In this document: positions 18,994 to 43,699 of the stretch, piece after piece | How the letters are laid out: every line of letters begins with the position of its first letter | Position numbering within the stretch: the first letter of the stretch is position 1 | Source of the DNA: Sphagnum compactum | Taxonomy: Eukaryota | Direction: 5' to 3' | Assembly (NCBI GenBank): GCA_965153455.1 | Contig: OZ234494.1 | Span: forward strand, 5,332,001 to 5,396,000 | Length of the DNA: 64,000 nucleotides | Made by a program: the position numbers and the translations under genes | The notes under the pieces: generated by a model | Database searches by the model: none | Seen by the model: only the letters and a program-made list of their open reading frames with translations | Told to the model about the DNA's origin: nothing

Positions 18994-21781
18994 TCAGTTC
19001 AGTGAAGCTCCTGAGCCAATAATGAAAATTGCAATGAAAATGGAAATCAGGACAACTGAGATGCCAGCAGCAAGAAAGAAAGAACTTCCCTGGGGACCTT
19101 CATTTGCTTTCTTTCTAGCTGGGCCCTTTTCATTGATGAAAGCAAGGGCATCCTCCACATTGAATTTATCGTCAGTTTTGCACTGGGTCTTAGACTTTGA
19201 TTTCTTAGAACCTTTCTTCCCATTTGATGGGCCACACACTGTAGTCACAGCTGTTGCAGAGCTGCTGGTGGCTTTGTTAACACTGGAAGAAGTCTTGCTC
19301 ATTGTTCCAGATCTCTCCACCTTGATCAAACCCACAAAAATTAATTTGTAATTAAGCAAAACTTGTAATTTGGATCAGTCTAGAATCATGATGTTCAAAC
19401 TTTGCACAATTACAAAAGGAACAACAAATTAGTACTAATGCATACATGTGCACTCAGTCTAATCAATCTTAAATCAATTGACTATTCTCAGTATAATTAA
19501 TTCATCTTTCCTCACATGCCAAGATGTATATTGCTACTACTATATGATCATGTGCATCAAGATATTGACTGATTGCACAATTGAAGATGAAGAGCTGATC
19601 ACTGCAGACCAATATAGCTTCTTAATTACATCAAAAGCTTAATTAGGTGGGCCTGAATGATTAGGCCACTTACCAGTTTTACACTCTTCCCCTTAGCTCC
19701 TGCATCCAGCTGCTGCTGCTTCTTAGACTCTGCAACCTTCTGCAGTTGCAACTGATCTTTCTCCTTCCTCTTAAGATTCAGGCTGCAGTTCTTACTTGAA
19801 TCCTGCAACTCTTTCTTCTCCTTTTGCTTTGAGTTCTGAATTTCCATAGTCTTCAGTTGGTTCTAAAAATGCCAAACCATCCCAATCTCAGCTCATGAAC
19901 AACAATTAGACAATATGGACATATACATATACATCATGTGGCATTCATCAGCCTTTGTTGCCTGTGTTATACATCTTGCAGAAGGTTGAATTTACCTAAA
20001 CAAATTTGTGACCTTTTCCATCTCTGGAGAGCTTGCAGGGCTCATTGTGAATGGGAGCTCTGAAAAGGATCTACATTAGATTCTACATGCCAAGCTGGTT
20101 TCTAAGTGAGCTACAATATTATTATTTACCTCATAGTAGGAGACTGATCTGCGTGAAGAAACAACTTCACACTCAGCCATACGGAGCCTTTGTATCATTG
20201 CAGCAATCTTAGCAGGTTGCTGCTACATACACATCATGTGCACAACCAAAGGAATCAAGCTCAATGTAGCTGGAAGTATCCTCTTAGATCCAGCCTCCCA
20301 CATAATTAGTTACACATCTCTCTTAATTAGAAACAATATAGATTAGATTTAGCAGTCTTAGCATCTTTATTGAAAACACACCCATTACAGCTAGCTAATT
20401 GCTGTTTGAAAATCCTTGAGCTACCTAGGTTTTCAAGTTGAACTAGATCTGGAAATTAGGAATTGCAGGAAGAAGAAGAAGGTCATGTATATTTTATACT
20501 TCTTGAGCTTGAGAAGCATGTAACTTGGCCAGCTTTTCTTTCAGCCATGAGATTTCCTCACAAGCTTTTGCTGCTCTTCGTTGTTCATTTGCTAGGCTCG
20601 AACTCTGCAGCACACATACATGTATGAAGACACTTCTCACCAGCTTCTGAATTAGGTCTCGATATGATGAGATCAATCAGCAACAGAAACAAGTTCATGA
20701 TCAGAAAACGTTTATGAGACTTGTCCCCACATGATGACACTACATGAGACATCACGAGCTAGACTCTAGTAGTTCTGTTTTCAATGCAGCTAGTAGGTAT
20801 GAATTCCTAAAGTATTACAGCAACACAATATGATCCTGCAGAAGTACCCACCAACTGTTTGGCTTTCTCCTCAGCTTCTCGTAGCTTCCTTATCAACTCC
20901 TTCACACGTGACTGCAACGAATCCAAGGATGTCTGGTTTGGGGTGATCTCATGTGATGACCCTTGCTGCTGATGTACGAGGCTCCCGGATACTAGTGTAG
21001 ATCCGTCCTTTGTCGAAGTTTCTGTCTTCTTCGCCTGGAATATTGCAGCGTTGTTCACACGATCTCCTCGGAGCTTTTCCACCTCGGCTTGTAAACCTGG
21101 ATTTTTTTCCTGAGTCATTGATGCGATCACAGGTTGCGCCACTGGCATCTTGGACTCGGCAGGGTCATGAGTCCGGCGGCTTGAATTGAGAGCCGGCCAA
21201 TCCGTTTCATCGAACCAATTGCTTAGCTCGACTATAGCCTGTTCTCTCTGCAAAAGCAACAAACCCGCGCATCATGAATGCATGGTTGGTCACAAGATCC
21301 ATGTCCAGCCGTACCCAACAATGGCATGAAAGAGGACTTGCAGAGAATGAGATTTCAATGAAGGGGACTTAGTGGGGAGTTCATATACCCTTGCCTCAGA
21401 GGCTACGGCTTCCTCAGACCCTCCAAGTTGTGCAGAATCTGCAGCAGGGTTCATTGCCTCACGTGGAAGCTCCGGAACAATATGAGCGAGTACTGGACCA
21501 TCCTCTGGTATGGAAGACAGAGCTGCTGGATCATGCACCGCATTAAGCTGGTGTTGCAGTTCAGCATCATCGTCAACAGGATCATGAGAATCAGCTCGCG
21601 GGTTCGTTATGATCTCAGGCTGCTGCTGCTCCAAGGCCGCAATTTCGTGATCAGCGGCGGTTGTGGGATTCCCAATTAGGTCCAATGTGACGACGGCGTG
21701 CACCTCCTCGACATATGCAGATCGTCCATGTTCTGCAGCTTCCAGCTGGTACATCGCCTCTGCAGGAAATTGTGGTGCCAT
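18994..21781 (-). CDS. coiled-coil, tail-anchored membrane protein of unknown function (~517 aa if the ATG at 21781 is the start)
   Basis: Coding exons 21781-21338, 21247-20852, 20604-20500, 20222-20130, 19862-19674 and 19320-18994. All are bounded by GT/AG, join in phase 0 and have no internal stop. Acidic/Pro-rich N-terminus, heptad-like middle (LQSRVKELIRKLREAEEKAKQL), C-terminal hydrophobic helix FFLAAGISVVLISIFIAIFIIG. An acceptor at 21847-21848 implies a further upstream exon (~22100-22400), probably UTR. Confidence 0.85.
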
Positions 21782-24700
21782 GGTGATTTGATTGTGATCT
21801 GTTAGCTGAGGTGCCGAATCCACAACCCGTGGGTTCGCCTGCTCACCTGCATAAAGAATCCATTTTTTTCTTTCAGGGTTGATGAGATCAGGAGCCGGAG
21901 TCGATGGGCTTTGATTCTTTTCGTTTTCTTAGTCTTCTCCTAGGGAGTCTTAAGGTCATGAGCATCCACATACTTGTATACATAGTTAATGAGAGGAATC
22001 ATATAAACGAAAACAGAGCACCAAGCTACTTGTAACGACGAATGTACAAAACAAACTTTTTCCCCTAATCCAAGCTCTTTCTATACATGATCACCACATT
22101 CTCCGCAATAATTTCAACGATGCAGCATACATGTTCAATACTGTGGATGATGATACCTCTAATTTCTTTATGGTCGCGATCTGCAGACCTGGATTGATCG
22201 GCGGTGCAGCAGCATTCTCGCCACACGAGCACGGCACAGACACGACACACACCACCCCAGTCGACAAGAGGAGAAGTTCAGAGAAGAGGAGACAAACAGC
22301 GGGAAACGAAGGCCACTGCCAAACAAAACCCAACTTAAGAGTCCCCAAACAATACACAACGTCGAATCCCCAATGACCTAATGCCGCTTTTGAATGCCCC
22401 TTGTTCTGGCTGCTAAAGTTGGCCGGGAAACTCCTCTAAATTTAGCAACCGGCCGGCTAAATCAGGTGAGGTTTCTTTCAATCAGGGCTCACGATTCTGA
22501 CTGGCGACAGGCTCTTTTATTTATTTTATTATTGGTGAAATTTTGCCAAAACGTGAAATGAATAGTCCGAAAATGAATTGAATTTTTTTAATTGCCATAA
22601 TTTGAAAAAGGTCAAAAAAGATTGGGTCATATTTTCTGCATTTGGTTTGAGTAGGTAGCCAAAAATGTACAAGGGTGTTAAAATTTTTAATCTTTTTTCC
22701 ATAAAAAGATTTACCAAATAGGCTAAATCTTCCTATAGATGTTCACCAATTGGGTTACATCATAAACTGAGGTTCTTTTGGGGTATCGTTTTTGATTTTT
22801 TTCCAAAAAAATTGGGAAATTGTTTTGTTGTTTTAGTGCAAATTAGAGCATTTTTGCCTCATTTTTTGAAAATAAATTCCAAATTTTTTATGTTGAAAAA
22901 TTGGAAAGAAAACCCTGACCATAAAACTTGACCAAAAAACAAACCACTGAATTGACAGGAGGTAGTGGACAAATTAATTTTTGAGAAACCTCTTTGCATA
23001 CGGAGGACGACCTGACCTGAATTTCAGGACCAAATGTAAAGCAGCTGTTCAAGCGAGGGAAGTGGGTTGAGAAATGAAGACATCTGGCATGTAACTAGTA
23101 GTACATACAAGTGAAGAAATGTTGTAGACAAAGTTCTTTTTTAAGATATGTAAGTAGGTACTTATCTGGTGGGGCCCTTAAATTATGATGTGATTGGGTT
23201 AGGTGTTAGGTCATGGCAGCTACCTATTTGCCTGGTCTCGTTGTTGAAACTCTTCCTTATTTTGTACTCATCTTGCCTTTTGGGACTGTGACCCTTCTTT
23301 GAGCTCAAGGCTTTTAACTTTTAACCCTACTAATATACACAGGGTGTTGAATAGGTAGTGTGCACTTTGTTGTAGTTAGGCTCTATCTTCTTCTCTCCCT
23401 CTCTTTTCTTGTTTCCCCTTCAAAGGATGTGCATCCCAGTGCTTTTTTGAGTGACTATTTTTTGCATTGCTGTGACACCCCAAAAAAAAACATAAGGACA
23501 GAAGTATTCTTTCACAGATACTTGGCTTTTCTTTAATTTTTTTGCCAAACTCCTACCTCCATTAAGGTATGAATCTCTCGGTTTGGGAAGAAGAGGGAGT
23601 TACTTGATAATTTAAATGCACCCCTTTTTTTCTCTTCTTCTTTATCTCCAGGTTAGGTGCACTTTGGGAAAGTGGGTCAAAAGTTCCATCAACTTTTGGA
23701 CTTCCACTACCTGACATCAAATTGAAACGCATATGAAGCATAGACATATTGGCAAAAATACTATTTAGGGTTTTTTGGCTGTTATTTCATGCTTGGCACA
23801 ATTATGCAAACCACAACAATGGACCAATCAAAAAAGTAGAAAACAAAAAGTAATTCAATTTCTTCAAACTTAATATTTTCATAAAACAAAAGAAAATTTT
23901 GATTATTTCTCACTTTTCCAAGACTTCTTTTGTTCGTCCAGAGCACGTTCTGATAATACTGTAGTGACATTTTAAGATGGTTTTGGTCACTCCAAGTTGC
24001 AAGTGATCACCCAATGAAAATTACACATGGCCCCTCTCAACAACCCAATACAAGAAATAACAAGCTTGGATGGCTAGTGTTTGTCTAAAAGGGAAATGTG
24101 AATTAGAAAGGATGTAATGTTAAGTGGCCAATTGTCAGGTCCTCTCGTGTTGATTCACACCATTTGAACAAAGTACAAAAGTACCTATTGTGCAAGAACC
24201 CTTTCTGTAAATAGCTGCCTATTGCACATTGAACTGTTTATTCACTCAAAGTAAATAAGAAAACAAATTAAGACCACCAAATTCAGCAATCCTATTGGCC
24301 TGGAAAAACCGTATTCAGACCTACACACAACAATCCTATTCTGTTGAACATTGAAAATAATGTGTCTCTTTCTATCATTTCCATTGGTCTTCTAAAATTG
24401 GCACAAACCTACCAAACCCTATTACACATTTCAAGGTTAGTTCACTCAAGATAACTCAAAAAACAAGTAATCAGACCATAAAATCCAGTAATTCCATGGG
24501 GCATAATTTATTTTTTTCACACTCAGGCACAAGCATATTCAACACCCTTTGTATAATATATTAATATTATAGTGTCTTCTAGATGGCTAAAAACAACCTG
24601 TTACCTAAAAGTTCATAAAATAAATCTCACTTTGGTCATCATTCTACCCAATATTCCTCCTTTCAAAGCTATCCATAGAGTTCACAAAAGTGAGGATCAC

Positions 24701-25460: not shown

Positions 25461-25850
25461 ATCCCCTTATGAAGGTTTGTGCCTTCTCCGAAACAATCAT
25501 TAGGTGTCTCATAATCTAAACAAACCTTAGACACAAACAAAACATTAGAAAAAGAAAGAAACTCAAGTCATCTTAAGTTGAAGAGGAAATTTGAGTTTCT
25601 TTTGATACTTTTTTTTGTATAATCCCATCTTGCATTCAAATTATTGTATCAATTTCACTAATTGGGTATTCTTTGCATAACATCTATCATGTGTAAATCT
25701 ACTACATCCAATGCCAATCCACATCGTGGAATTCTTGAACACACACCAATTTTTGTTTCATTAGAAATTTAAAATGTTTGAGCATTCACTTTCTTGAATT
25801 AAAAAGTTTGGACAAATACATAAGTAATTGAGTGTAAATTATGTTTGAAT

Positions 25851-26852
25851 CAGTATTGTATGTGTATATCTTTTACTCGAACATATTCATTGGGTATGGA
25901 TAGGGTATATTATTTTATGCTAAATTTTTTTAATTGATATATTTGCACACCACACATGTTCACAAGTGTGTAATCTGAAAGTTGGTACCCTATTTGAACC
26001 CTTGGACATATGCAAACCCAAAAGAGGATTATATGTGAAAATATCAAGTCAAATTAAGGTAAGTAGGACCTAAAACTTATACATATCAAAAATTTGTTTG
26101 TAGGTGTTTCCAATTCCTTGGGGTGTGCCAATTCTACCAATTTGTTGGGATGTGAGATTGACAAACCGTTGAGAGCAATGATCAATCCTAAACAAAAAGC
26201 AGATGGCTAATCCACAAAGGCTTTACAAACTACTTTAGTTGTGTATGTTATATTTGTATGTAATTAACATTAGATAGTTGAGTTCCATTTTTCATTTAGC
26301 AAATTGAGAATTTTTAAAATCTATTTTGATACCTATACATATTGCTCGCGGTGCTCAAATAGATGTTTGTGAAGGCATCAGGGTTACAATTGAAAATCAA
26401 AGGTCAATATACCAATAACACCGGCTTTGTCGAATCCACCTTAACCCTGCAGACACACAAAATTGAATTTTTGGTGTGTTTGTGGATATTTGTATTCAAA
26501 GATGAATCAAACACTTTGATTTTTTGCATTCTGACATGAGATTTGTGCATGATTATTGAGTTTGGCCTTTGAAAATTATGTCAATTTACTATCAAAATGT
26601 GGAATTTTTTTCATTTTTAATTAAATATATAAAAACTAAATACTTGTTTTTTACCCCCAAAAGAAATATGTCATAATAAAAGGTACTTGGACCATATTCA
26701 TCTATCAAAAATCACAAATGTTTTATACCCAAATTCTATCTTGACAAAATGTTTTTAGTGTTAATATACCTTTACCCAATGGGTAAACCCATTAAAAAAC
26801 TTATATACTCTTACCTAAGGATACATACAACCCATGAACCCAAACAACATTA
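25851..26852. mobile_element. non-autonomous hAT element (~1.0 kb)
   Basis: TSD GTTTGAAT (25843-25850) / GTTTGAAC (26853-26860). Degenerate TIRs CAGTATTGT... / ...ACAACATTA. GGGTAT/ATACCC subterminal motifs. Confidence 0.7.
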
Positions 26853-27149
26853 GTTTGAACTAGTTTTGGGTAGGAACCTAGTTTGGCAGGTTAGAACCAA
26901 TGTTGTCCAGTTATCCAATTCACTCCGGTTATCAATATATATAATTAACATATATGTATATATACATATTTGACCTTGTGTCAAATTTTGAAATATATGA
27001 ATATACATATCTTGCAGATCTAGATATTGATTGATTATCTATGCATATCCATATCCGGATTTTGTAGGTTTTTTATTTTCTAAAGGTTGAAGGATATGCA
27101 TTCAAGTGCTTGAAGGTTTGCAAGTTTTGCTATCTCAAACCCTAAACAA

Positions 27150-27385
27150 CAAAAAGTTGTAGTGGCAAAATTCCCTTTCAATCCTACCAATGCCGGAACT
27201 TAGTTGCGTTTGTTTTTCCATGATTGTTTTGTGTAAGGGTGTGATGTGTGATGCTTCTATTCTGATCAACTCCACCAACATGAACCAGGCCGAAAACGAT
27301 GTGATTATCAACTTTAGTCTTGGGAACTTTTTTAACTAGAAAAAAAGTGCTCGTGTGTTGTTTCTTGCATGGACATATTGGCTTC
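27150..27385 (+). pseudogene. class III plant peroxidase fragment
   Basis: Pieced translation AGT*LRLFFHDCFV*GCD..DASILINSTNMNQAENDVIINFSLGNF..LEKKCSCVVSCMDILA matches the hallmark motifs LRLxFHDCFVxGCDAS and CPGVVSCADILA. Stops, a small duplication and a deletion are present. Confidence 0.9.
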
Positions 27386-29721
27386 TTTCTAGCTTCTACT
27401 TGGATTTTGCTCTTAGCAATTGAACCAACAAGCGAGCAAACATTGAATTGATGTTGAGTTTGCAAAGCTGATGGGAGCTTCCAATCAATTTCCAAGTTCC
27501 TAGATTTTTGCAGAGCTGCAAATTCTTACCACATTTTGAACAATAGTGAGCAAACGAAGTTGTAAGAAGACCAAAGATTTTTTTTGCATGCATATTTGAA
27601 AAGCTGCAAGAAGACAACAAGTGGTCTCCATATGTGTTCGAGAAGATGCATGCAGTCAAGTTTCCAAAAAAGAACACACATGTGAACACACACACTCTTT
27701 CACGATTGATCCAAAACTCTCACAAGACTATTATTTGTGTGCATTTGAAAAAACCTTCAACATTCATCATTGCAATGGAGAACTTTGTGGAGAAAATTCT
27801 ATGCATACTCAAAAGTGTAAAACATCCATGACTATTATTGTTGGGTAAAAGCATGGTTAGGTGGCTCATGTTTGACAATTTGAAGAGTCCGCATCTTACA
27901 CCAACCACAATTCCTGGATTTAAAATAATTATCAAACTATAAATCCTATAATTATCCCCTATGGTTTTGGTCACAAATATAAGTAGACCACCCTTGAAAT
28001 ATCCCTAAACATGTGATTGGTCAGGAAATTTAGAAAAAAGTTTAAAGATTTCAGTGTGAAATGGAATACCAATTGTAAAAAATGACGAAAATCACAACAA
28101 GTTAAATTTTTAAATATGAAAAAAAACTATAATGAAAAAAGTTCAATGCATCTTACAAATAAATTATTCATTGTATGGTGATCTACTTTTTAATTTTAAT
28201 TACTATGACATATTTTTTGAGTCCACAATTTTCATTGTTTTTGTGTGTGACAAACATAGTGTGATCATTTCAAAAGTCCACAATGAGTCCATTCTTTTCT
28301 TAAAACTCATCCGTAATTTTTAATAAGATTTTCATTAAAATCTATTGCAACATGGATAATGAAAAAATTGAAAATTTAATGTTTGATATGATTTTACATT
28401 TTATAATCTAGAAAAATTACAACTGTGACAATCCAAACAATCCACCTAATTGTGTTTTCACCCTATTGCGATGAGTCGTTAAAAAGAATCTACTTTCAAT
28501 GACACATGCATGATTTGATGAAAATGAACATTTCTTTCTATCTCTTTCTCTCTTTTTGCTTGCTTGTTTGCTTGCATGCACTTTCACTAATTCTTTGGTT
28601 GTTATTTAATTATTTACACCATTGTCAAGAGCTGATGAAGTAATTGCATAGTCATGCTAATTCGTCATTGTTATTTTATCATTAATTTAACATGTGATGA
28701 ATTAATAATGAAAATTGTGTGAAGTTCGTTATCATGCATTGAAAATATGTTTGACACACGAATAAATTTGTTGATGGATAAAGTAAGAACCTATGAATGA
28801 ACGAATGTTACATGGATTTCACATCTTTCAATAAATTTGTGTCTCAAATGTGTTCTCAATACACGATATTAATGTGTGAAACATACAAATTATGAATGAA
28901 TGAATTTTGCACGAATTCCATTACTACATCATGAGATGCTAAATTTATGATGAAATCATGATGAAACATGCCATTTTACAATATTAGTTTGCATGTAGGA
29001 CTCACCACATAGCTCGTCACTGCTATTTTGATGATGATGAAGTCATGATGAAGGTGATGGTCTAACATTTTGCAAGCAACTCTCACAAGGTTAGGAATTA
29101 AGATTTGTTTTCATTATTCTATCATTTCCAAGTGTTGTGTGGACTTCTCTATTATACATTAAACAAGTGTGTGAAAATAAATAATTTGGGCCAACCATTC
29201 ATTATGCTCGGCCATTTTGAACATACTATGATGTGGTTAAGGCTGATTTACACACTTTAGATTAATTTCATGTTTTGAAATTTGAGGATTAAAGTATCTT
29301 ATCTATATATACGGCTAGTCATTTTTCACTTCTTAATGAGATTTAAGGATTTAAGGAGTTGCAAGAACCTTGACTAACATCCATATGCATTCATGAATTT
29401 TACAACAATATATGGCCCACCTAGACATTAATATTCACCTATGTAGTTCAATCAACACTTGGTCGTTATGAGTGTGTAAGTCAATGTGGTTGTTTGTCAA
29501 ATCAATTGTCTTGACATGAGCAAGGATGGTTTAAAAGAGAAGTCAAAAACACCTATCCAAAAAGCACTAGTGTTTAAAAATCCCAGTTTTCTGTCACCTC
29601 AAATGATGGGGATTTGGAGGGAGTATTTTTCCATCCTTTCCTTGAACTAATTCTAGCTGAAAAAAATAGGATGACATAATTTTGGAACATATGAACTTCA
29701 TGAACTTCATTTCTATACTAA

Positions 29722-29793
29722 GTGAATGTGGCCTTGGTTCTAAAATTTGGATCCCTCGTGAATGTGGCCTTGGTTCTAAAATTTGGATCCCTC
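29722..29793. repeat. perfect 36-bp tandem duplication
   Basis: GTGAATGTGGCCTTGGTTCTAAAATTTGGATCCCTC occurs twice. Confidence 0.95.
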
Positions 29794-30378
29794 TTATACA
29801 TTTTCTTCTTTGGAAATGACCCAAAATTGTCAAATTATATGATTGAAAGGAGGCGAGGTGAATTGTGTCTTAAAATGGTTGGCATCTATTGATCAAACAT
29901 GGTGCTAATAATGATAAAGTGTGTTTTTTGTGTTTTGGGAAACACATTTGATCAAAAGAGTCTAATCAAAGTTATTGGTAGACTCCCTTTGTTTATTTAA
30001 TGTATAGTTATAATGTTTCATTGTTAGTAGAAAGTATCACACTTATCCATGTCTAATGATCTATAATAAAAAAATCTAGATTGTAGTTATTGTTTCACCT
30101 ACTCATTTATAAAACACAATTGTTCATAATATAATTAAAGCTAGTCCATGCTTAAATAGTTAGAAATTTTGTGTGTAGACCTTTTATCATATACATACCT
30201 TTGTATGTGTATGATTAACTTTTCCTTGAGTTGGTCCTTGTGTAACATGCCATTTTATAATACTAGTTTGCATGTAGGACTCACCACATAATAATCAAAT
30301 ATGAAGTTCATCATGATGTGCTCTTTTCATCGATCTATTGATCTGAATTTTTTTGTTGATATTTTAATGAGGATGCAG

Positions 30379-30470
30379 TTTCAAGAAATTTTTAACGAGG
30401 TTGACACTAACAAGGATGGCAAAGTGAATACGAATGAATTCATTGCATTAATTGCCAATAATGAAATGAG
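30379..30470 (+). pseudogene. isolated EF-hand-encoding exon
   Basis: CAG| acceptor, FQEIFNEVDTNKDGKVNTNEFIALIANNEM (canonical DxNxDGxVxxxEF loop), |GTAT donor. No complete gene found around it. Confidence 0.75.
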
Positions 30471-32409
30471 GTATTATGTTGCCCATTGGCCCCCCAACAG
30501 AGTAATATCTTTTTCACTTTTATTATAGAGATTTTGGATTTAAGATTTAACTTTTCCTGAAATAGGCTAAAGTAACATATAGTAATCCACTTCCTGTTGT
30601 TTACATTTATAACTCAAACTAGAGATATTGAGGGAGAATGCATTGGCTTTTGGGGTGTAGGACATTCAAGATTAATCAATGCCTTGTATGTGGTGAGAAT
30701 CTTGACAAAGGGACTTTTCTTATACGCATCAAGCTATAGTTTGGTTTTTATGGTATTACCAAGTCAACAAATAGTGTGGTTTGAAAACTGTGAGGGTGGT
30801 TGGTCAATGGTGGTTGAATTTTAATTGGTAACATTTTGTCTGACCATACCCATTTTATGTTGATGCAGTTTGTGCTCATTGTTAAATTCTCACAAATGTT
30901 GCCAATTTACTTTTGATCTATTGTAATACTTACCATGCATGGATTTCAGAGTGAACATTTAGTTCATATGTTTTGGGGTGACATTTTTGGGGACTTGTAG
31001 CAAAAATTTGAATTAACATATATCCATCAATCCTTGTGTGAGTTTTTCCCTAACTTGGGAGGTAATCTTTTAATTGTTTCGTTTCTTACTAGATATGACT
31101 TTGACAAATAAAATGTTCATTACATTAGGGAATTGCTCTTTAGTGAGAAAGAAGGTCTAATTTAACTACCTTCTAATAAAACATTTGTTTGACAACATTG
31201 AGCACCCTCATTTCAAAAGAAACAATGTGTGATTTAGTCCTTGGATCTTGTAAGAGAATGAATTAGGTGCTTTCTCAACCTTCCTGTTGAACACAATGTA
31301 GTTTCAATGGAATCATTTGCAAGGTCTAAGAGCTTGGTTTGTGATGTTATTACTACACACAAGGCTATCATTCCTGGGTGTGGTGAGGTGAAAGTTTGTT
31401 GTTCTTATGTTCCTACAAACGCTTTCAACCATTCCTTGTGATCCATTTCAGAAAAAATTGTTAACCTTTCTTTTATGTAAGAGCCATAGCTACAATTGGA
31501 GTCAAATATCGTATTCATACCATTGCTACTATATTTCCTCTTTGTTGTTTATGATCTTACAGGGTAGGGTGTAGGGTTTTCGTTCTACAATGGCTAAAGG
31601 ACAAAAAGGGGCATTGCATGGTGTTGATGTTGTTGCAAATGTGGGCGGGATTGACTCTAATTTCTTTGATTTGACAACATCAAATGTTGTTGGCAACAAT
31701 TCAAATGTTGAAACTTGAAAGCATGGTGGTTGGTAATTTGGCATTGGGTCAAAGTAGGATAAAGTATACCAAAAAAGTAGACGTCTCCACTTTAACCTTG
31801 CGCCTCTCATATAATTACCATAAAGTAGCATCAAATTAGGTGAAAGTATGTGTCAAGTAGCATTAGTTGGCTCTATTAAATTCATAAGAATCTAATTTTA
31901 AGAAAATTAAAAGCAAATCAATTTAAAAAGTTGATAAAAAATACATTTGCAACCGACTGAAAGATATGTGTTCAAACCTATTTTATGGTTTAAAACATTA
32001 ATGAAATTCAATATGTAATAAATTTAAAAAAGAAGATCAACATATATTTTAGCAAGTCATAAAAAAAAAATCTATTTCCTTTTTGTAAGAACTACTTGAC
32101 ATCTACTTGAAACCAAAAGCTCATAGTGAAAAATAAACATCAAAAGCTACTTACATTTTGAAAAACCTACTTAAAACCTACTATTATAGTTTGAAATATG
32201 AAAATCAATGCACATTAAGGTAAACATATATCATATTTAGTCATTAAAATGAAAACATTCAATGTTCCACAATTCTATAATGGGTTTTGTTGTTATTTTA
32301 AATCTATTTATTCTAGTTTTGACAAGGTATTCAAGTTGTTCACTTTATCTTGCTTACACCCCATTTGGTAATGTGGAAGTAGCAATAGAAGTTCTATAGT
32401 TTGTAACTA

Positions 32410-33761
32410 TAAAAGCTCAAGCTGGATTGTGGAAGCTTCACCATCACTCATCCGTTTTCTAGGGTTTTTTTTGCTGTTAATGATAACCTCCTTATTGACA
32501 TTGTGAACCCACAAATGTTGAGATGCATTATTTGCAGGTCTTAACAAGCAAGTGAAAGTGTTTTGACCAAGAGTTACTCTATTCTAAAAGAAAGGTTTAT
32601 AAAATACAAGTGTAATGGGGTGACTCTTATGAAGACAGACATTGATTGTGCGCATCCCAAATTGCTTGTTACCAGGAAGAAGCAGTTTATTGAAGTGATT
32701 CCCTTAGATCATACTTGACAACTAGCAAAGTAAAAGGTTGCAATTATTAGCAGTGCAATCACAAATGTTTTTGGGTTTTCATCACAAATAGCATGTGATG
32801 AAAAATTATAAAAATTTCTTGAAGATTTAGTCTTGTATATTTGTAAGAGCTACATGGCTCTATCTACTTGTGAGAATAATTGGTTAAGAAGGTTAGTTTT
32901 ACACTAGCACCCTTGTGTTTTATTTCCATTTCGCTCACAACTTATGGAAGAAGTGCTTCTTACTACGGTTACCAAATCTATGGAAATTCATGTTTTGCCA
33001 AAACTTGCAAGTGCATCAATTGTTTTTGCTTCATTTGATTTATGGATGTCCAAAAGAGGCATTAACACATTTGCTTTGGTTGTCAACTATTTATTTAAAA
33101 CTCGGGAGCTTATGCATGCCACTGTTGGCTTGTTTGAGGTAAATGAAACAATTGGCTTGTGCATGGCATGACAATTGCAATCTTTGCTTGAGAAATTTAG
33201 TTTGATTCATTTAGTTCTTGCTTTTGTCAAAGATGAAAGTAGCAACTTGGCTTCCATGGTTACAACATTGTGATCCATTGTTGATTATGAGTTGCTAAAC
33301 TTTCCCCAAGTTTATGAAGGCATTTGTTTTGGTCATGTGTTTAAAGCATGCCAATATTCTATGAATGATGACAATTTTTTTATGGGGCTAAGGCAAGTGA
33401 ATGTGAAAGATGGCTAAGCAGGTTTACAGAAAACAATTACTTGGACAAAAAAATCTAGGGAAAGGAGTCAAGAGTGAGAGAAAGCTTGTGTTGAAAACAG
33501 GTTGCCGCCTTGTAAGCTCAAAACACTTGTTAAAACAAGATTTGTAAGCAAAATCATTATGATTGAAGAATGTCTTGAATTCAAAAAAACCATCCTTCTT
33601 TGTTATGGCAAGCATAAAATAATGACATTACAACAACGAGTTCCTAGGGCCCAAGTTTGGGCTATTACAGAGGCAATTATTTCTTGCTTGAACCTTGTTG
33701 TGAGTGCATGTGTGATAAATCAATCAAGAGGGCATTGGTTCATATTAGATACTTTGACTAC
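32410..33761 (+). pseudogene. hAT transposase, 5' part (BED finger and DDE region), degraded
   Basis: BED-like ...GFFAVND...MLRCIIC...NGVTLMKT..., then ASFDLWMSKRGINTFALVVNYL (first catalytic Asp motif), CFGHV and KLKTLVKTRF. Multiple stops and frameshifts. Confidence 0.9.
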
Positions 33762-35480
33762 CACTGCAAGGAGTTTTGTGATCCATACCAACCCACACAT
33801 TTCTGACTTATGTCCAAATCAACCATATTTTCAACTATTAATGCAACTATCCTTTGTGACACCATGGTAAAAATGACTTGTGATCGTAAAAACAATTAAA
33901 AACTGGTTTGTAGTTGCATATGCAACTATGATTTGCGACTAATGTTAGTTTGGATGAAAATGAAGATGAAAAGTGAACTTATATCATTTATTTTTAATGG
34001 CATCTCAAAATAGATGAAAATGTAATTTTTGCAACTTGGGATGTGGTTCATAGGCCACAAAACATCATGTGGCATCTTATTCAACTTTAATTGTAACTAT
34101 AAATCCTAGTTACAAATGTATATGAAATTAAATGTAATAAAAATGAGTTGGCCAATGAAATTGTTAGATTTAGTGGTTTGATTTCTTTTCCTCAGCCTTC
34201 TTGCATGAACTATTAACCATTAGATGTGTAGTAAGGTTTGGTAGGTTTGTGAAACTTCAGAGGACCCATGGTAAATATGGATCATTATTTGGAATTTCCA
34301 ACATTAAATTTTATCATGTTGATATATCATAGTGTTTTTCAATTAGTTAATTGATTAGGTAGGCTAGGTAATATATATTAGGTATTGGGTACTAGTATAT
34401 AAGTAGGCTAATTATTAGTAGGTGTTTTAATATTGTGTTGAATGAAATAGTGTTATGTTTAATTATTTATTAGGTAAGCTATATAGTTATTCTATTTATA
34501 AATTAAGGTCGATAATAAGTAATATTTAAGTAAGATATATAGTAGGAAGTATGTTCATGGGTTAAGTAATAAATAGTAGGGGTAATTAATATGTGATAAC
34601 CTTTTTGTATAATTTAATCATTTAATTAGGTGGACTATTAATTAATCTAGCTATTTAGGCTAGGTAATAAGTAGTAATAGCTAGTAGGTCATATGTAGGT
34701 ACTTTGTCATGTTGATATGATTTTTTTTAGTTAATTATTTAATTAGTAAGCAATGTAATTTATGTATTGAATAGGTTAACTAAGTAGTAAGGTTAATTTA
34801 TGATCCATTTATAAACCTTATATGTGACTAAGTTATATATCATATATCTAAATTAATTGTTTTTGTACAATTACGATACATTATAAGAAAGAAATATAAT
34901 CACAACAACACATCTTGGGTTTTGTGACTAAGCTTTATGGCTACGTCCTAGTTAGGGAGGACATATGCAACTAGTCATTCACGAGTTGTTAAACCTATGT
35001 CATTTCACCCATGTAGTTGCAAAGGACATTTAATCACAAAGCCTAATCATCTTATTGATTAAGATTTTTAAATTTTGGCTTAATATTGATTCCATGTCAT
35101 CGATGACCTTGGTATGACGTGTAAAGTGCATGCCATCTCAACCTAGTTGTTTTATTCGACTAAGTGTTACAAAAGATGCCTTGATGGATGGATGACATGT
35201 GTTAAAAATCTATAAACACATTATGAATCATTGAACATGACCAAAAGTCAACTTAATTTAGCCCATGTAACTAGTGAAGTCAAAAATCAACTTGATTTAA
35301 CCTAACTAGGTTAGGCAACCTAGCCTAGCCCACTTAACCAAAAATCAACTTAGCTAAGTTAGCTACTTATGTTAAACAATTTAAGCTAGGTGGCCTAGAT
35401 TAAAAAAAACATCGAACTCTTAGCCCAAGGAGCTTAAACTAGGCTACCTAACTTAAGCCAAACGGCTTAGGTATCATAGG

Positions 35481-35550
35481 TTGTAAGAATGAGGATTTGA
35501 ACCCCTCACCTTCACTTTGGGGTTCAAGTCTTCATCCATTGTGCATTATC
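35481..35550 (-). other. degenerate tRNA-like cassette inside the CACTA element
   Basis: Reverse complement ATAATGCACAATGG...GGGGTTCAAATCCTCA has a canonical B box (GGTTCAAATCC) and a weak A box. Confidence 0.5.
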
Positions 35551-36584
35551 ACATTTTTTATATTAATTATATTTAACAAAAAGTTACAAAATTCAAAATT
35601 TTTAGCTTTGAATTAACGTTGGCCCCCTTAGGTTGACCTAGGTCAACTTATTTATTACTTACCAACCTAGCCTAAGTTAACCTAGACAATCTTAGGCTAA
35701 AAAAAAAACGTAGGATAGTTATGTCCCATCTAGTCATATCATAGTCACATCTAGTTGCACAAACTTGATAAAATATCTTATAATGAGGCTACCTAGGTTG
35801 ACTTGGCAAAAACCTTAAAGTTAGAAACCTAGGCAAACCTACTTAAATTTACCTATTACTTGGGTAACTTATTGTAGGTATATTTAAACATACTAAATGT
35901 AGTAAGTATATTATGTCTACTTAAGTACTTACAAGGTAATTTATCTTGCGAAGTAGGTTTTTACTAAGTAGCCTACATACATAGGTTAATTTAATAGGTA
36001 TGTTAATCTAAGCTAGTGTTTTAAATAGTTAAAAAGTCAAGGAGTTTTGTGTTGCCTTTTCCAAAATGATTATTAATATTGTAGTCATAATTATAATTAA
36101 CAATAGATTGTTTAGTACACATACACATGCATGTAGATTCATGACTTCAACAACCTCATAGCACACCAAAAAATATGGCATGCCACGACAAATATGGGTG
36201 TCATAAATTCAAGACACATAAAAACTTATGGTGTCACAAAAAATCATGGATTACCACGAAAATTTGTGACATCTTGTTACGAACACTAGTAGAAATCAGC
36301 CAAAATGTAACCACTACATTTGCAACTACATGCGACTTGTAATCATTTGCTACTAAATTTGGAAATATTTGTAGCTACGAGATTAAATTTTAACTATTTT
36401 GGTCATTTTCACAACTATGATGCAACTATTCGAAACTTCATCCTATTGGTTGTATGAATTTTAGGTTTATTTTCATCCATTAATAGGTTGATATGTCTCA
36501 TTAATCAAAATAGTCACCAAATTAATTACACCCTAAAGGTATTCTACGATGACATAGGGGGTATTTTTATGTATGTATTAAAAT

Positions 36585-36616
<32 letters not shown>

Positions 36617-36659
36617 AGTGTGTACATTAAATATGCATATGTATGTATATTGTTCATAT

Positions 36660-38010
36660 AATGAATCTCAAAATTAATATTTGAACTTTGAAATTTGTTA
36701 TTCAAATCTGAAAATTCCTCTTTGAATTCTGAAAATTATATTTGCATCTGAAAATTGTCATTTCAATTCTGAAAATGATATTTGAATTTTAAATTGATAT
36801 TTGAATTTGAAATTCGAAATATGAATTCATAAAATCGTTACTTGTACTAAAAAAAAATGATTAAGTCTAAAATTATAATTCCAATTAGGAAATTTTTATT
36901 TAAAAATTATAGTTCATTTCAATTTTGAAAATTGCTATTGGAATTTTTTTTTAAATGATTGAATTTGAAAAAAATACTTGAATCTAAAATCTAATATTTG
37001 AGTTCTAAAAATAGTTATTGGAATGGTAAAACAAATAATGACACACAAACTATTCCAAGAGTTGTTAAGTCTCAAAATTAATATTTCAATTCTGAATTTA
37101 AAATTTTAAAATTAAAAAAAAAATTGAATTCTGAAAACTGCTATTTAAATTCTTTAAAAAATTTATTTGAATTTGAATATGAAAATTGCTATTTCAATAG
37201 TTTTCAACATTATTTGAATTTGGAATTATCTATTTAAATTCAAAAGCCTATTTGACCTAAAAATTGATATTTGAATTCTAAATTATTATTTTCGAATCCA
37301 AAAGTTAGTATTTCTATTCAAAAAATTATAAGTGATTTTTAAAAAGGACATTTTAATTTTGAATGTTTTTACTTGAGTATGAAATTTTCTATTTCAACTC
37401 TGAAAATTTTGCATTTAAATTTTAAATAATCATTGGATTTGAAAGTTGAAATTTCAATTCCGAATTACTTCAATTCTGAAAATTATTTATTGAGTCTAAA
37501 AATGGACAGTTGAATTTTGAATATTGTTATTTGAATCTGAAATTGACATTGCAATTCTGAAATTTGCTTTTTAAATTCAAAATACTTATTGGATCTAAAA
37601 ATTAATATTTGAATTGTAAATTATTATTTTTGAATCTAAAAACTAGTATTTCAATTCAAAAAAAATTAATTGAGTCTTAAAATTGACATTTCTATTTTGA
37701 ATAGTTTTATTTGAATTCAAAATTTGATATTTGAATTCTGAATTTTTTAATTTAAATATTAAGAAAGTTTTTGACTTGAAAGTTGTAATATGAATTCCAA
37801 ATTATTATTCTTGATTCTCGAAATTAATATTTCAATTCAGAAAATTAATTGAGTCTGAAAATGGACATTTGAATTTTGAATATTGTTATTTGAATCTGAA
37901 ACTTGACATTTCAATTTCGAATTTTTTCTTTAATTCAACAAAAATATTTAATCTAAAATTTGATATTTGAATTCTGAATTACTATTTTGTAATGGAAAAC
38001 CAATATTTTA
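36660..38010. repeat. AT-rich degenerate minisatellite with higher-order periodicity
   Basis: ~19-20 bp TTTGAATTCTGAAAATTGATA-like monomers. The landmark TGAGTCT..AA.TG.ACA recurs at ~37491, 37671 and 37850. Confidence 0.85.
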
Positions 38011-39808
38011 TTTCAGTGTTCATGGTTATATTTCAATTGAGATTTTAGGGTTTTTTCTATTAGTGTTATCCATAATAAATCACTGTTATAAGTAATTATA
38101 AATAATTATTTTATAAAATTATAAGTTACAATAAATAATTATTGTATATCGTAGATTTTTGTATTATTAAATTTATATTCTTATAGTAAAAGAAATTAAT
38201 TAATGGAAATGATGTTAAATTACTTTAAAATCATTGTAATTACTTTAGATAAAAATTAATTAGTATGTGCATAATTATTTTTTAATTAAATATAATTATT
38301 CATAATCTGTAATTTATAACTTGAAACCTGAATTTAAAGTTCAATATAATGTAGTTAAAATAATTATTTAATGATTATTTAATTTCAGTAAATATTATAC
38401 AGTATTTCATTTTTTAATTTTTAAAATTCTGTAATTAATCATCTATGTTAAATATTTTATATAAAAATTATAAAAATTATAAAAGTTAATGTGATGTTTA
38501 GCAAATTATTGTATTTATAGTTAATAATTACCAAGAAAAAAAAGATTACTTGACTATAAAAGTTTTTACACCAATAAATGCAATTATATAGTAGTTAATG
38601 TAATTAGTTTAATATTATTGTTTTGAAAAATTTGTGTAAGAATTTACTTTTTAATAGCAATTTTTAATTCATTATTTATAATTTGAAAATAAATATTTAA
38701 AATAGTTTTTTTTAATTACAAGAATGAAATTACTTTTACATTAATTATATTGTCTATAATTCAACCAGATTCTTAAAAGTAATAAAACATTTTAAAATAT
38801 TCTAATTATTATAATTATCTAATTATATATCACATATCAAAATTAAATTCTATTGCTAAAATTATGATATACAAAAGCAATATTATATAATATAATTTAA
38901 AAAATCAAATGAAAGTTTAAAATACAAAATGTATAATATTATTTGTTATTATATTATCCACAAAAAAAATTTCCATTCATAAATCATGTGCTTGAATTAA
39001 ATTCTCGCAAGAAATGGTCATTGGAATGGTATTCAATAACAAAATTCAAGTATTTTCAACTAGTTGAGTACATTATTGAAAAATAATTACGATTAAACTT
39101 TAAATCTTGTCATTTGGACAAAATATCAATAGATATCAAATATCAAAAATTATGTTTTGTGTAATGTTTTGAATCAAGTAACCTAAATATAATGCACTTT
39201 ACTATATTGACACAAAAAGTGAAGTGGTTTGGTTGTAAAAGAGTTGATCTCCATCCTCGGGGTTCAAAGATCAATTCTCATAAATGACATAGGTTGGGGT
39301 TAGTGGTGGTAAATTGATTGAATATTACCTACCTACATAGCCTACTAGGTAGACTAGGTAGGTGGCTTACCTAATAACCTAAACTAAGTTTTTAGCCCAA
39401 CCAAGGTAATAACACATGTCAACAATTGATAAGTTGAAATTAATGAAATTATCAATAATACAAATATATAAATATAGAAATAATAATTTTATTTCTAATA
39501 TTTAAATAATAAAAATTAAAAAAAAAATTTATATAAATAATCAACTACATTGTTTAGTCGTAAAAGTAGCCACAAAATGACAATGCCACATATGCTAATT
39601 CGGATGGATGAAATGTTAATGTAAGTTGCATCTTCATGCGATTGCCATTGCGACTTGGTGCCACATATTGTTCCATGTATGTTTTGCAACTAAAATTATA
39701 TGCGACTTTATTAAGGCAATTGGAGCAAATTGTAGTCACATGTGGCATTTATGACTTTAAAATAATTAAAAAAACTAGTCATTAATATGAAAATTCCTTG
39801 TAGTGTAA

Positions 39809-40640
39809 TGCTGTTAATATTTCACTCAACATAGAAGCTAAGGTTGTGGGATTTGGTGATGCGTTTAAAATTCTAAATCAATTTGATTTTTGAATTGTTC
39901 CCCTTGTAAAAAAAAATGTCGCAGGAAATCATTAAGGTGATCAGACCTTTCTTCTTGTTTTTGAAGACATTTGATCTACATAATGTTCACAACATGCTTG
40001 CCATTTTGATAGATCCTCATTTCAAATTTCTACGAATTGTAAAAAATTATGTGGGTTGTGGTGCAACAATTCGTCTTGCTTTTAAATATGATGCAAAAAC
40101 AGTGATTCCATTGCTTATGGCTTGTTTTGATTGATTGAATCCTATTTCCCAAGCATGTGTAGATACTATTGATGTGTTCAATTCTCAATTTGAAGAAGGT
40201 AATATGTTTGGTGTTGGAGCATCCATGGAGGAATCCTTTCATGCTTTTGTTGTTGGAGAACTTTCTTTATTTAGGAGGTTATCTATCCTTGCATTTGCAT
40301 GTGCCGATCCTTTGTCTTGGTGGCGGTGCCAAGAAAACCAGTTTTTGAATGTTGGCTTTTTAACCAAGCAAACCCTTGGAATTCCAAGGTCCCAAATTGA
40401 AACTAAACGTGTTTTTAACCTTGCTGGTGTGTTGATAGCCTTGTGGCATTGTCATTTACGAGTGGAGAATCTAGACTAAATAATCATGGTTGTAAAAAAT
40501 TGGCTTGATGATCCACAACTGAATTGCATGCCTATTGTTGTTCTTAAGGATTATATGAAAGCTAAATGAGCTTTAGCTGAACAAATTTATGATTTAATTA
40601 AAGAGGCCGATTTTTTTTGAACAGTTGGAACTTGATGATG
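39809..40640 (+). pseudogene. hAT transposase, 3' part (C-terminal dimerisation domain), degraded
   Basis: HNMLAILIDPHFK, DPLSWWRCQENQFLNVGFLTKQTLGIPRSQIETKRVFNLAG (decayed S..ER.FS motif of the hAT dimerisation domain). Confidence 0.9.
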
Positions 40641-40875
40641 ATTATGTAAGTCAAATGGGTATCTTATTTTGTTGTCTCTTTTTTAACCAAAACTTGCAAT
40701 TTGATTATTTTTCTTCAATATGATTGATTTTAATTGTGTGCAAGTTTTATGCATGGATTATGGACTTCACACTTCACTACTCACCGATATCATATATTGT
40801 TGTTCAAGCTTTTGATATTATCTTGAGCTTTTAGATTTTGGGTGCCGGAGTGGTTTTTGTGTTTTTGTAGGTAGC

Positions 40876-40930
40876 TTGTGATGCAATGGGTGGAGTTCTT
40901 CTTTCAAGAACTAGGGTTCAATTCCCCCAC
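40876..40930 (+). other. degenerate tRNA-like cassette in the hAT 3' region
   Basis: TGTGATGCAATGGG...AGGGTTCAATTCCCCC: A-box-like and B-box-like motifs. Confidence 0.45.
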
Positions 40931-41011
40931 AAATTACTTCAATTTGTAAGGTGAATTGGTAAGGTGTTCATGTGTGTTTTACTATAGGTTTTTGTGTAAT
41001 ATTCGTATGTA

Positions 41012-41228
41012 CTATACATATTTATAGTTTATTAACATTTGAATTTCAATTCATTCATATTGGACCATATACATATCTATAATTTATTAGCATTTGAAAA
41101 TTGGTTCATTCATAACTTTACCATATACATATTTATAGTTTATTAACATTTGAAAACTGGTTTATTCATAATCCAACCATATACATATCCATAATTTATC
41201 AACATTTGAAAACCAATTCAGTCATAAC
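41012..41228. repeat. ~58-bp tandem repeat (about 4 copies), hAT subterminal
   Basis: CATATACATAT.TATA.TTTATTAACATTTGAAAA... repeated just inside the right TIR. Confidence 0.85.
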
Positions 41229-41391
41229 CAGCAAAGGGAAATTAAAACGATTGACTACATATAACTATCTATGCCATGCAATTTCCTGAATTTAAAAAAT
41301 ACATATCCTTATTCTTTTTCTAAAAAATTTGTTATGTTGATATCTAGATGTATGTCTTAAAACTAGATAATCAGACAACATTGGTTAGAAC

Positions 41392-41829
41392 TAGTGTTAG
41401 GCAAATACCCAATTTGGAGGGTTTGAATTGTAGGTTTTGGTTCTGGTTAATAAAACTTGAACTAAGTTTAGTTTTCGAATCGGATTTGCAACAAAAACCA
41501 GGGTTTTGGTCTTTTAAAAAGAACCAAAACTGAACTGGAACCAGGATTCTCGTTTTTAAAGAACTAGGACCCAAACCAGAAATGGCTCAAGGATTAGAAC
41601 TGGGGGTTAACTATTACTGAACTGCCAGTTTTGGTCCAAGTTACTTGGAACCAAGTCTATTTTTTCTGATTGGAACCAGAATCAGAACCAATATTTTGTT
41701 GTTTTCAAAGAATTGAACCCAAAACTGAAACCAATATTTTGTTTATTTAAAACCACAAAAACTGGAACAAGAACTACTTTAATTAATTTTCTTAAACCAA
41801 CACCGAAGGTAAGAACTACCTGACACTTG
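41392..41829. mobile_element. GGAACC-rich hAT MITE abutting the large hAT element
   Basis: TIRs TAGTGTTAGG / CCTGACACTTG. Flanks GTTAGAAC (shared with the large hAT) and GTTAAAAC (41830-41837). Confidence 0.75.
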
Positions 41830-43699
41830 GTTAAAACCCATCCATTCTAGTCCCGGTTAGTTAAAACCAAATTGGAACTGAAACCAGAACCTTTTTAGAA
41901 CTGGACCCAAAACACTAGGTTCTTCGATCTATTTATGTTTAAAACCCAAACTGAAACTAGATTTGAGATTTTGGAAAAACAACTAGAACTAAGGGCTAAA
42001 CAGAGGTTAACCAATAACTAATCACTGGCTTTGGTTTGAGTTACTTGGAAGGAGAGCAGAATTAAGTCTGATTTTCAAAATTGAATCTAAAATTTGTTGT
42101 TTTGAAAAATCAAACCCAAAACTGAATTCCCAGTTCCATTTATCTGTGGAAATACAGGTTGTTTACAAAAATGAAGAACTGCCCAACACTGGTTTGCACC
42201 TAGGGTGAAAGAATATGTTTATAGCCTCTAAATGGATTTAATTAGTTGATAGGTTAATAATATTCACATTCTTAATTGTATACCTGACCTCAAAACCCAA
42301 CAATCTGGGGGTGGATTGGTATAAATAATTTGGTCAATTTGGCAATACCATTATCATTTCAATGAAAAGAAACCAATAGAGTGTGGTTTGCCAAACCTTA
42401 GAAGGTTGGATATTTTTGTCATCCCCAGCCCAATTGCATCCCATGATCTACAACACAAAAAAATGATGTTCATGCCATGTTTCTGACTTCACCAGAACTT
42501 GGATAGGTTTATTTAATGTGGATTTTCTTTTTCCAGAAACTGGAACCAAAGGTTTTGTCAAATCTAAATTTCAACAGACCTGAACTGGAAGTTATTAACA
42601 AAATCAAAGAACCAAAGAACACTAGCTTAGACCAGTGTTTGACGGTTCTTTCATTTCCAACCCAACTGCAGCTCCAGGCTATACAAGATATGTAGGCATA
42701 TTACTGGCAGAGGCCAAAGTTTGAAAGACCCACCCCATGTGCTGCCCTGGAAAATAGAAATTTTTTATGGCATCCACCCTTGGCTCCGACCTGGCAAAAA
42801 CAAAAATGTCAAAGACTGGAAAAGAATCAACAGTTCTTTCATGAAACAGGAGGTTCTTTCAGGGGTTTGAAAAACATGGAACTAAGTGGTTCTTTGATTT
42901 TGTATTTTTTTCAAATACCTAGAATCGCCTCACATTGGCTTATACAGGCCGCAACATCAGCATTTGAGTGGCACTTGTAACTGCCTCCATCTATTCATCT
43001 TTCATTGTGAAGATGGAATTGCGAAGTAGTTTAGGGAGAGGTATGTATTAGGCACAAAACAATCACTTTGTATGTTACCTGCATTTGAATATGATCTGAA
43101 ACCAGGTACAAAGTCATACACATTTATTTTAATAACCAACAAGAAATTTCATAGGTGAAAAAGTTCATTCAACACATTTTAGATGAAGAAGGTGATTTGT
43201 CAACAATGCTCTTGATATGTTTGTGGGTTACACCAAGATGGCGTGATAGGGTTGTTGTCCGTCTTTTGTTGTCTTACTCTTGAGGCCCCACAAACACAAT
43301 TAACATCCCATTGTTCAGTTTAAGGTAAGGACTGAAACTGGGGCCATTCTGGGTATACGGGCCTGGTGTTAGGAGACATTTGAATGTGAGACCAAAATTC
43401 CAAGAATCACCCCACTCAAGATCTTTTCCAAGTATAAAGAATCACTAGAATATTGCTTATTAGATGGGCAGCTGGTTTTTTTTTTGGGAGAGGAGACTCC
43501 TTGTAAGATTCCTCATTTTTCAGGAAGCTTATGCATAAGGTGCCGTCCTTTGTTGAGGCAGAAATTTTAATAAAGAGTGGTTTTTACAAATTGTTCATTT
43601 CAATTGTAGGAACATCATATTCTGAAGAAAATAGAATATTGTAAGTAAAATTAACTTGGGTCACATCCCTACCATCAACACATATATGTGTGTTTCACC

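Follow-up and report, generated by a model that had tools for sequence, protein, structure and literature searches.

The window analysed here is a 64-kb stretch of the Sphagnum compactum genome (assembly GCA_965153455.1, contig OZ234494.1, positions 5,332,001 to 5,396,000 of the forward strand), which has about 33% G+C and few long open reading frames (ORFs). It contains an array of four old, dead elements, three of the hAT superfamily and one putatively so (element A), that are placed end to end and are separated by 8-bp sequences of two kinds. From left to right, the array consists of GTTTGAAT, element A, GTTTGAAC, the left terminus of a miniature inverted-repeat transposable element (MITE) called B, GTTAGAAC, a 14.5-kb hAT element, GTTAGAAC, a second MITE, GTTAAAAC, the remaining part of B, and GTTTGCAC. 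The first kind of 8-mer, site 1, brackets element A and MITE B. It is found as GTTTGAAT at 25843..25850, where it forms the left target-site duplication (TSD) of element A, as GTTTGAAC at 26853..26860, where it is common to the right end of A and the left end of B, and as GTTTGCAC at 42192..42199, where it is the right TSD of B. The second kind, site 2, lies within B and brackets the 14.5-kb hAT and the 438-bp MITE. It is found as GTTAGAAC at 26890..26897 (left TSD of the hAT and, as argued below, native positions 30-37 of the B family), as GTTAGAAC again at 41384..41391 (common to the right end of the hAT and the left end of the MITE) and as GTTAAAAC at 41830..41837 (between the MITE and the right part of B). 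No strand is assigned to any of the six copies. The outer copies of site 1 match the middle copy at 7/8 and 7/8 positions, and those of site 2 at 8/8 and 7/8 positions. Direct reading of the sequence confirms this layout and every one of the 8-mers described in an initial annotation of the window. It also confirms that different elements lie exactly one TSD length apart at two junctions (26853-26860 and 41384-41391). The tip YARTNTTG is present at all eight element ends, and no further copies of the four elements were found in the window.

The longest element (26898..41383, + strand) is a decayed sequence of 14,486 bp with a TSD of 8/8. Its terminal inverted repeat (TIR), CAATGTTGTC, matches at 10/10 positions and then at 5/8 of the following positions. 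It contains a transposase pseudogene in two parts, both on the + strand. The N-terminal and catalytic part (32464..33786) aligns by tblastn with amino acids (aa) 63-501 of a Ceratodon purpureus protein, P0002, and the C-terminal part (39892..40617), which includes the hAT dimerisation domain, aligns with aa 524-761 of the same protein. The match thus begins at aa 63 of P0002, which is annotated in its source as "BED-type domain-containing". There are 11 in-frame stops in the transposase frame at 32500-33897. The read-through translation of this frame (P0001) has 1437 protein matches at E<=0.001, and Dimer_Tnp_hAT is present in the best of those that are full-length; the best full-length relatives are two C. 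purpureus proteins, the better one being 36% identical, and fragments from JGI metagenomes are 66-78% identical. A Pfam search of P0001 returned no domain, and a homologue search with a 130-aa ORF gave no match at E<=0.001. The C-terminal ORF (40135-40479) matches PF05699 (Dimer_Tnp_hAT) at E = 1.4e-4 with 22 bits (cut-off 21.4), and the relatives P0002 and P0003 match PF05699 at 1e-13 and 4e-12, respectively. Judged from its sequence, the 14.5-kb element is identified as a dead hAT-superfamily transposon with an 8-bp TSD, short TIRs and a transposase pseudogene with a dimerisation domain. The assignment of the array to the hAT superfamily, which had been proposed in the initial annotation, is borne out by the TSDs together with the related TIR tips and this pseudogene.

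Several other sequences are found within the 14.5-kb hAT. An AT-rich satellite of 20/40-bp periodicity (36654-38015; G+C ~22%) lies between the two transposase halves, which are 6.1 kb apart (33787-39891), and 56-bp subterminal repeats occupy 41013-41228. An EF-hand fragment (PF00036, E = 3.4e-8) at 30295-30528 on the + strand may represent a captured piece of a gene or, alternatively, belong to another nested sequence. A direct repeat of 50 nucleotides (nt) is present at 28962-29011 and 30241-30290 (94% identical, 1279 bp apart); both copies hold a TIR-like TAATATTG tip adjoining GTTTGCAT, which may mark another nested element.

MITE B is interrupted after its leftmost 29 bp. Its left terminus, TAGTTTTGGGTAGGAACCTAGTTTGGCAG, is located at 26861..26889 (+), and its body and right TIR (CAGTGTTGGGCAG, reverse strand) are located at 41838..42191 (+). 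Taken from 26861 to 42191, B has a TIR of 10/13 and a TSD of 7/8, and without the insertions it amounts to 391 bp (29+8+354). The MITE next to the right end of the hAT (41392..41829, +) is whole, 438 bp long, with a TSD of 7/8 and a TIR that aligns only with a 1-nt indel (CAAGTGTCAGG versus CAGTGTTGGG); at its own positions 30-37, GTTTGAAT is present without interruption. The two MITEs share 72% mean column identity and align at both ends, so far as sequence can tell as members of one family. Both show the features of hAT-type MITEs, namely small size, lack of coding sequence, CAGTGTTGGG-like TIR tips and 8-bp flanks at 7/8. The bodies of B-family MITEs consist of strand-biased short repeats containing GAAC, both in the window (41392-42191) and in a metagenome locus described below (L043, 1657-2030). 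GAAC occurs 14 times in the 438-bp MITE, 0 times in either 300-bp end of the hAT and 3.2 times per kb in the window. The absence of such repeats from its ends makes it probable that this hAT did not give rise to B. That the target mimics a subterminal binding motif of the transposase is speculation only, the hAT ends being without GAAC.

Element A (25851..26852, no strand assigned) is the least certain of the four. It is a non-coding sequence of 1002 bp with the TIR tips CAGTATTGTATG and TAATGTTGTTTG, a TIR of 8/12 and a TSD of 7/8, and its right tip is exactly 8 bp from B. Relatives of element A were found neither in the window nor in the 89 metagenome junction loci described below.

Chance matches were controlled for with 100 Markov shuffles of the window. 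When YARTNTTG ends were paired with TSDs of at most one mismatch, five TIR-plus-TSD pairs were found in the window, all within the array, compared with a mean of 0.3 and a maximum of 2 in the shuffles. Two of the five are cross-pairs between site 1 and site 2, which arise because the two sites differ at a single base. YARTNTTG tips alone occur at chance level (81 sites in the window versus a shuffle mean of 75), and generic local end-to-end alignments are not above shuffles, the observed score being reached in 65/300 for element A, 109/300 for the hAT and 39/300 for the MITE. Support for the elements therefore comes from position plus TSD and not from TIR length. One could still suppose that the boundaries are mis-drawn or coincidental, such that the 8-mers are frequent GAAC-type repeat motifs and element A is ordinary DNA between look-alike motifs. 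The GAAC-rich bodies of the B family, the native occurrence of site 2 in that family and the TIR of element A (8/12, not significant by generic alignment) would fit this explanation, as would the loose junction pattern, which by itself is expected 0.37 times in the window. It is nevertheless hardly credible in view of the five pairs against 0.3 expected, the perfect TSD and TIR tip of the hAT, the presence of a complete MITE family member exactly between two copies of the 8-mer, and the finding of 8-bp junctions again at other loci.

These other loci come from metagenome contigs that were scanned for tail-to-head junctions (CCCAACACTG, 0-30 bases, CAGTGTTGGG), which yielded 90 matches at 89 loci. 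The sample is a proxy and not a census of the genome to which the window belongs. Because many of the loci represent one locus from several samples (88-99.9% identical over full length), they were clustered into unique loci. The 35 loci from a moss-like sample series form 12 unique clusters, with gaps of 8 bp (four clusters), 7 bp (two), 9 bp, 11 bp, 13 bp (two), 15 bp and 18 bp. The 54 other loci form 39 unique clusters with gaps ranging from 1 to 28 bp, three having a gap of 8 bp and seven a gap of 7-9 bp; many of them are simple hairpins whose loops are palindromic or 4 nt long. The gap is exactly 8 bp in 4 of the 12 moss-like clusters (P = 4.4e-4 against a uniform distribution over 0-30, binomial test; P = 0.044 against the 39 other clusters, Fisher's exact test), and between 7 and 9 bp in 7 of the 12 (P = 4.1e-5 and P = 0.011, respectively, in the same tests). 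The initial annotation had expected an excess of right-TIR/left-TIR junctions spaced by 8 bp, and the proxy sample speaks in favour of it (4/12 moss-like versus 3/39 others).

The four gap-8 loci have the spacers GTTCGAAC, ATATATAC, CTACAGAC and GTTTAGAC, and the element pairs differ among all four, so that they represent separate events. When the outer flanks are considered, the two gap-7 loci also resemble 8-bp TSDs (G+TGCAAAC at L044; GTTGGAAG versus GGTGGAG at L033). At the gap-18 locus two different TSDs are found 2 bp apart, which indicates that near misses occur too. As for the outer TSDs at the four gap-8 loci, one partner is closed at L073 (AGATATAC/ATATATAC) and at L044, and both sides are closed at none. 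Applied to representative moss-like loci totalling 37.6 kb, the loose junction pattern recovered only junctions that had already been selected. Since 8-bp junctions exist at further loci, TSD re-use is recurrent.

Two of the metagenome junctions show additional features. In L049 (1511-1525) and L055, which are one locus, a 15-nt spacer between the abutting ends consists of CTATAAAC and then a second copy of this 8-mer that lacks one base; it resembles a hAT excision footprint, left by a third element formerly located between the ends. At another locus, represented in one form by L013, L018 and L074 and in a second form by L057 and L073 (~88% identical), an extra 18-nt unit is found at the 8-bp junction in only one of the two forms, and this unit is a 10-nt TIR tip plus 8 nt.

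The left terminus of B has homologous 29-mers in L006, in the L014 group, in L033 (twice) and in the MITE at 41392. In L006, a metagenome contig with an uninterrupted B-like copy, the 29-mer is followed by GTTAGAAC and then by the body. As the MITE and L006 both carry such an 8-mer at positions 30-37, the hAT cut a motif that the B family has by descent. By this comparison, site 2 is native B-family sequence, which is a new point. The initial annotation had held that each insertion went into the TSD of a previous element; site 2, being native to the B family, is not simply such a TSD.

Six distinct B-like left ends were identified in the window and the 89 loci together. In three of them a piece of the hAT family directly follows the 8-mer in the same orientation (B of the window, the locus L014/L016/L043/L079 and one L033 element), and the other three are uninterrupted. 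A seventh match to the regular expression, L030, was set aside because it is unrelated and matched by chance. The nested piece in L043 is only ~92 bp long, with a CAGTG tip, one hAT subterminal CCRGTTATCAAT motif and the flanks GTTAGAAT/GTTAGAAC, and it is directly followed by a B-like body with no MITE in between. L043 was also considered as an orthologue of the window locus; this was rejected, its flanks and left neighbour being unrelated, and it is instead a paralogous intermediate. Because L043 lacks the MITE, the MITE beside the right end of the hAT in the window is a separate insertion. It is also evident from L043, which combines a B-like element and a nested hAT-family piece with another left neighbour, that the abutting units do not always occur together.

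The nest at other loci reflects either a hot-spot site or a multiplied composite of B plus hAT, and we decide for neither. If the latter held more widely, part or all of the array would have been mobilised by its outer ends and brought in as a unit instead of being built here; B with its nested hAT may in particular belong to an amplified composite family with inherited internal "TSDs". The succession of the 29-bp left end of B, GTTAGAAY and a hAT-family left end in the window, in the L014/L016/L043/L079 locus and in L033, with the same orientation in all three nests, is what such a family would show. Moreover, the nested parts have diverged between loci to about the same extent as the B parts (~60-72%, judged by eye in the alignment), which fits one old nesting followed by amplification. 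However, neither the A-B pair nor the hAT-MITE pair is a fixed unit, given that L043 is without the MITE and that L006 and the MITE at 41392 are un-nested, and the 29-mers of nested copies do not group against un-nested ones (a small sample, compared by eye). The TSD of 8/8 and TIR tip of 10/10 of the hAT in the window are mildly unexpected for a very old event, and one original double insertion would still be required. On balance, we regard composite transposition as improbable.

The targets themselves suggest how the array arose. Four independent targets of the B and hAT families (GTTTGAAC, GTTAGAAC, GTTCGAAC and GTTGGAAG) all fit GTTNGAAS (4/4), from which we infer a target preference near GTTNGAAC, with seven specified positions. 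The single position left open in the GTTNGAAC-like motif is occupied by T in 3/3 copies of site 1 and by A in 3/3 copies of site 2. The elements share the TIR tip YARTGTTG and would share this narrow preference, and each insertion would duplicate the preferred 8-mer, leaving one copy flush against each element end. With the preferred 8-mer copied beside both ends, the next element using it would land exactly one TSD away. In the proposed order, a B-family MITE, carrying or later gaining the hAT at its native GTTAGAAC (positions 30-37), would first have inserted at GTTTGAAC; a second B-family MITE would then have entered the right-hand copy of the TSD of the hAT; and finally element A would have entered the left-hand copy of the TSD of B. 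We consider it probable that double insertion at TSDs, driven by target preference, built the array. The structure, the shared 8-mers and the 8-bp junctions at other loci are direct observations, from which the order of events and the role of preference as the sole cause are deduced. As every insertion copies the preferred target beside its own ends, a strong target preference is sufficient, and it would explain the array without the "safe-haven strategy" or "self-extending arrays" invoked in the initial annotation. Its interpretation holds as regards hAT identity, TSD re-use and recurrence, but not in taking site 2 simply for an earlier TSD.

Several points weigh against double insertion driven by preference. 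There are nine GTTNGAAC/GTTCNAAC sites in the window and only six of them are unoccupied, so that half of the evidence for the preference comes from the array locus itself. With a preference this narrow, finding three like 8-mers is not by itself proof that the junctions originated locally, and B plus the nested hAT may be an amplified composite and not an event at this locus. Element A has weak TIRs and no known relatives. In addition, the moss-like series was set by contig-name prefix after the data were seen; its sole independent support is that all 16 loci with a BLAST match to the window fall inside the series, compared with 0/54 of the others.

The initial annotation favoured a re-targeting by the lineage of its own TSDs and ends. 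In such end-directed homing, incoming transpososomes would be captured by transposase already bound to resident ends or subterminal repeats, and insertions would be steered, beyond sequence preference, towards the TSD as well as a fixed site ~30 bp within B-family left ends. Two re-use events within one 16-kb locus, the occurrence of the hAT family at exactly positions 30-37 in three of six B-like left ends and always in one orientation, and the six other GTTNGAAC/GTTCNAAC sites in the window that are empty would all be expected from such homing. Tethering is conceivable by analogy with the Hermes transposase, described in the relevant part of PMC10368747 as an octamer with several BED domains binding subterminal repeats. 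None of the present results separates homing from plain preference, however, and the nested copies are equally explained as descendants of one composite. The different subterminal motifs of the hAT ends and the B bodies (GAAC 0 in either 300-bp end versus 14 in the MITE) argue against one protein binding both, and the 37.6 kb of representative moss-like loci provided no added junction. We therefore regard end-directed homing as unlikely, if somewhat less so than composite transposition.

A bolder reading, which we put forward only tentatively and consider rather unlikely, would make the hAT lineage near site-specific for GTTNGAAC. In that case, a copy of this motif conserved 30 bp inside the left end of B-family MITEs would serve as a landing pad, to which the autonomous hAT family would have been drawn repeatedly and in one orientation (3/6), and its TSDs would in turn draw more elements.

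Outside the array, ORFs of 154 and 212 aa, longer than any others in the window, are located at 20807-21928 (-), ~4 kb to its left. Further hAT-type right ends with GT....AC flanks are found at 12318-12335 (CAGTGTTGGGCGG followed by GTAATAAC) and 13097-13122 (CAATGTTGTGCAGTTC followed by GTTATTAC), and their flanks are reverse complements of one another. No convincing left partner was found for either of them, the best candidate being at 10553 with a TSD of 6/8.

The array can be compared with several known systems. In the passages of McGurk and Barbash (2018, PMC5932611) on tandem dimers of P and hobo in Drosophila, the dimers are attributed to double insertion at one target site, and target preference is named as the cause. 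As in the array, a dimer is a head-to-tail pair with exactly one 8-nt TSD in between, and the spacer fits the preferred motif; hobo is itself a hAT element, and its junction motif GTGGGGAC fits GT....AC. The partners of the dimers treated there are copies of one active family, recent and polymorphic, whereas those of the array belong to different families that share only the TIR tip, are old and decayed, have one junction inside another element, and reside in a moss host. The SaTar arrays of Mutator-like elements (MULEs) in guayule and rice, as portrayed in the pertinent part of Valdes Franco et al. (2018, PMC5907723), are linear, non-nested arrays of mixed-family non-autonomous TIR elements in which one kind of target is re-used. 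They resemble the present array in joining mixed families end to end through target re-use; they differ, on that account, in belonging to the Mutator superfamily and in having microsatellite targets and flanks often inconsistent with simple TSDs, whereas the hAT elements of the present array are flanked by clean 8-bp TSDs, and one of them has been split by others. In rice and maize, multimers and self-insertions of MITEs are common and have been ascribed to independent insertions by target preference (Jiang and Wessler 2001, as cited in PMC5172404). These are likewise MITEs adjacent to or nested in MITEs; according to that citing text they are mostly Tourist and Stowaway with 2-3-bp targets, for which exact re-use is trivial, in contrast to the 8-bp target of the array. 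Finally, the Hermes/Ac-type hAT elements, as outlined in the section concerned of PMC10368747, have an 8-bp TSD, the target pattern nTnnnnAn, short TIRs and a C-terminal dimerisation domain. The array agrees in TSD length, short TIRs and the dimerisation domain. The preference inferred for it, ~GTTNGAAC, is much narrower than the nTnnnnAn given there for Hermes, and its transposase is a pseudogene that is 36% identical to its best full-length relative, from C. purpureus.

The mechanism is thus already known from P and hobo, and knowledge of hAT transposition is unchanged by the array. What is new here is that site 2 is native to the B family, that the nest exists at further loci and that 8-bp junctions do so as well. 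The genome-wide density expectation raised in the initial annotation concerns GTNNNNAC, and the recurrence figures given here come from the proxy sample only. The locus supplies GTTNGAAC as a narrow candidate for the target motif, and in one MITE family it points to nesting at a fixed position. If the landing pad were real, arrays would grow from a sequence-coded docking site and not by accident. The array provides a clean, fully resolved non-animal example of a TIR transposon with a narrow preference that makes its own TSDs the next landing sites, and the same process of TSD re-use is thought to seed tandem arrays of transposable elements and satellites in flies.

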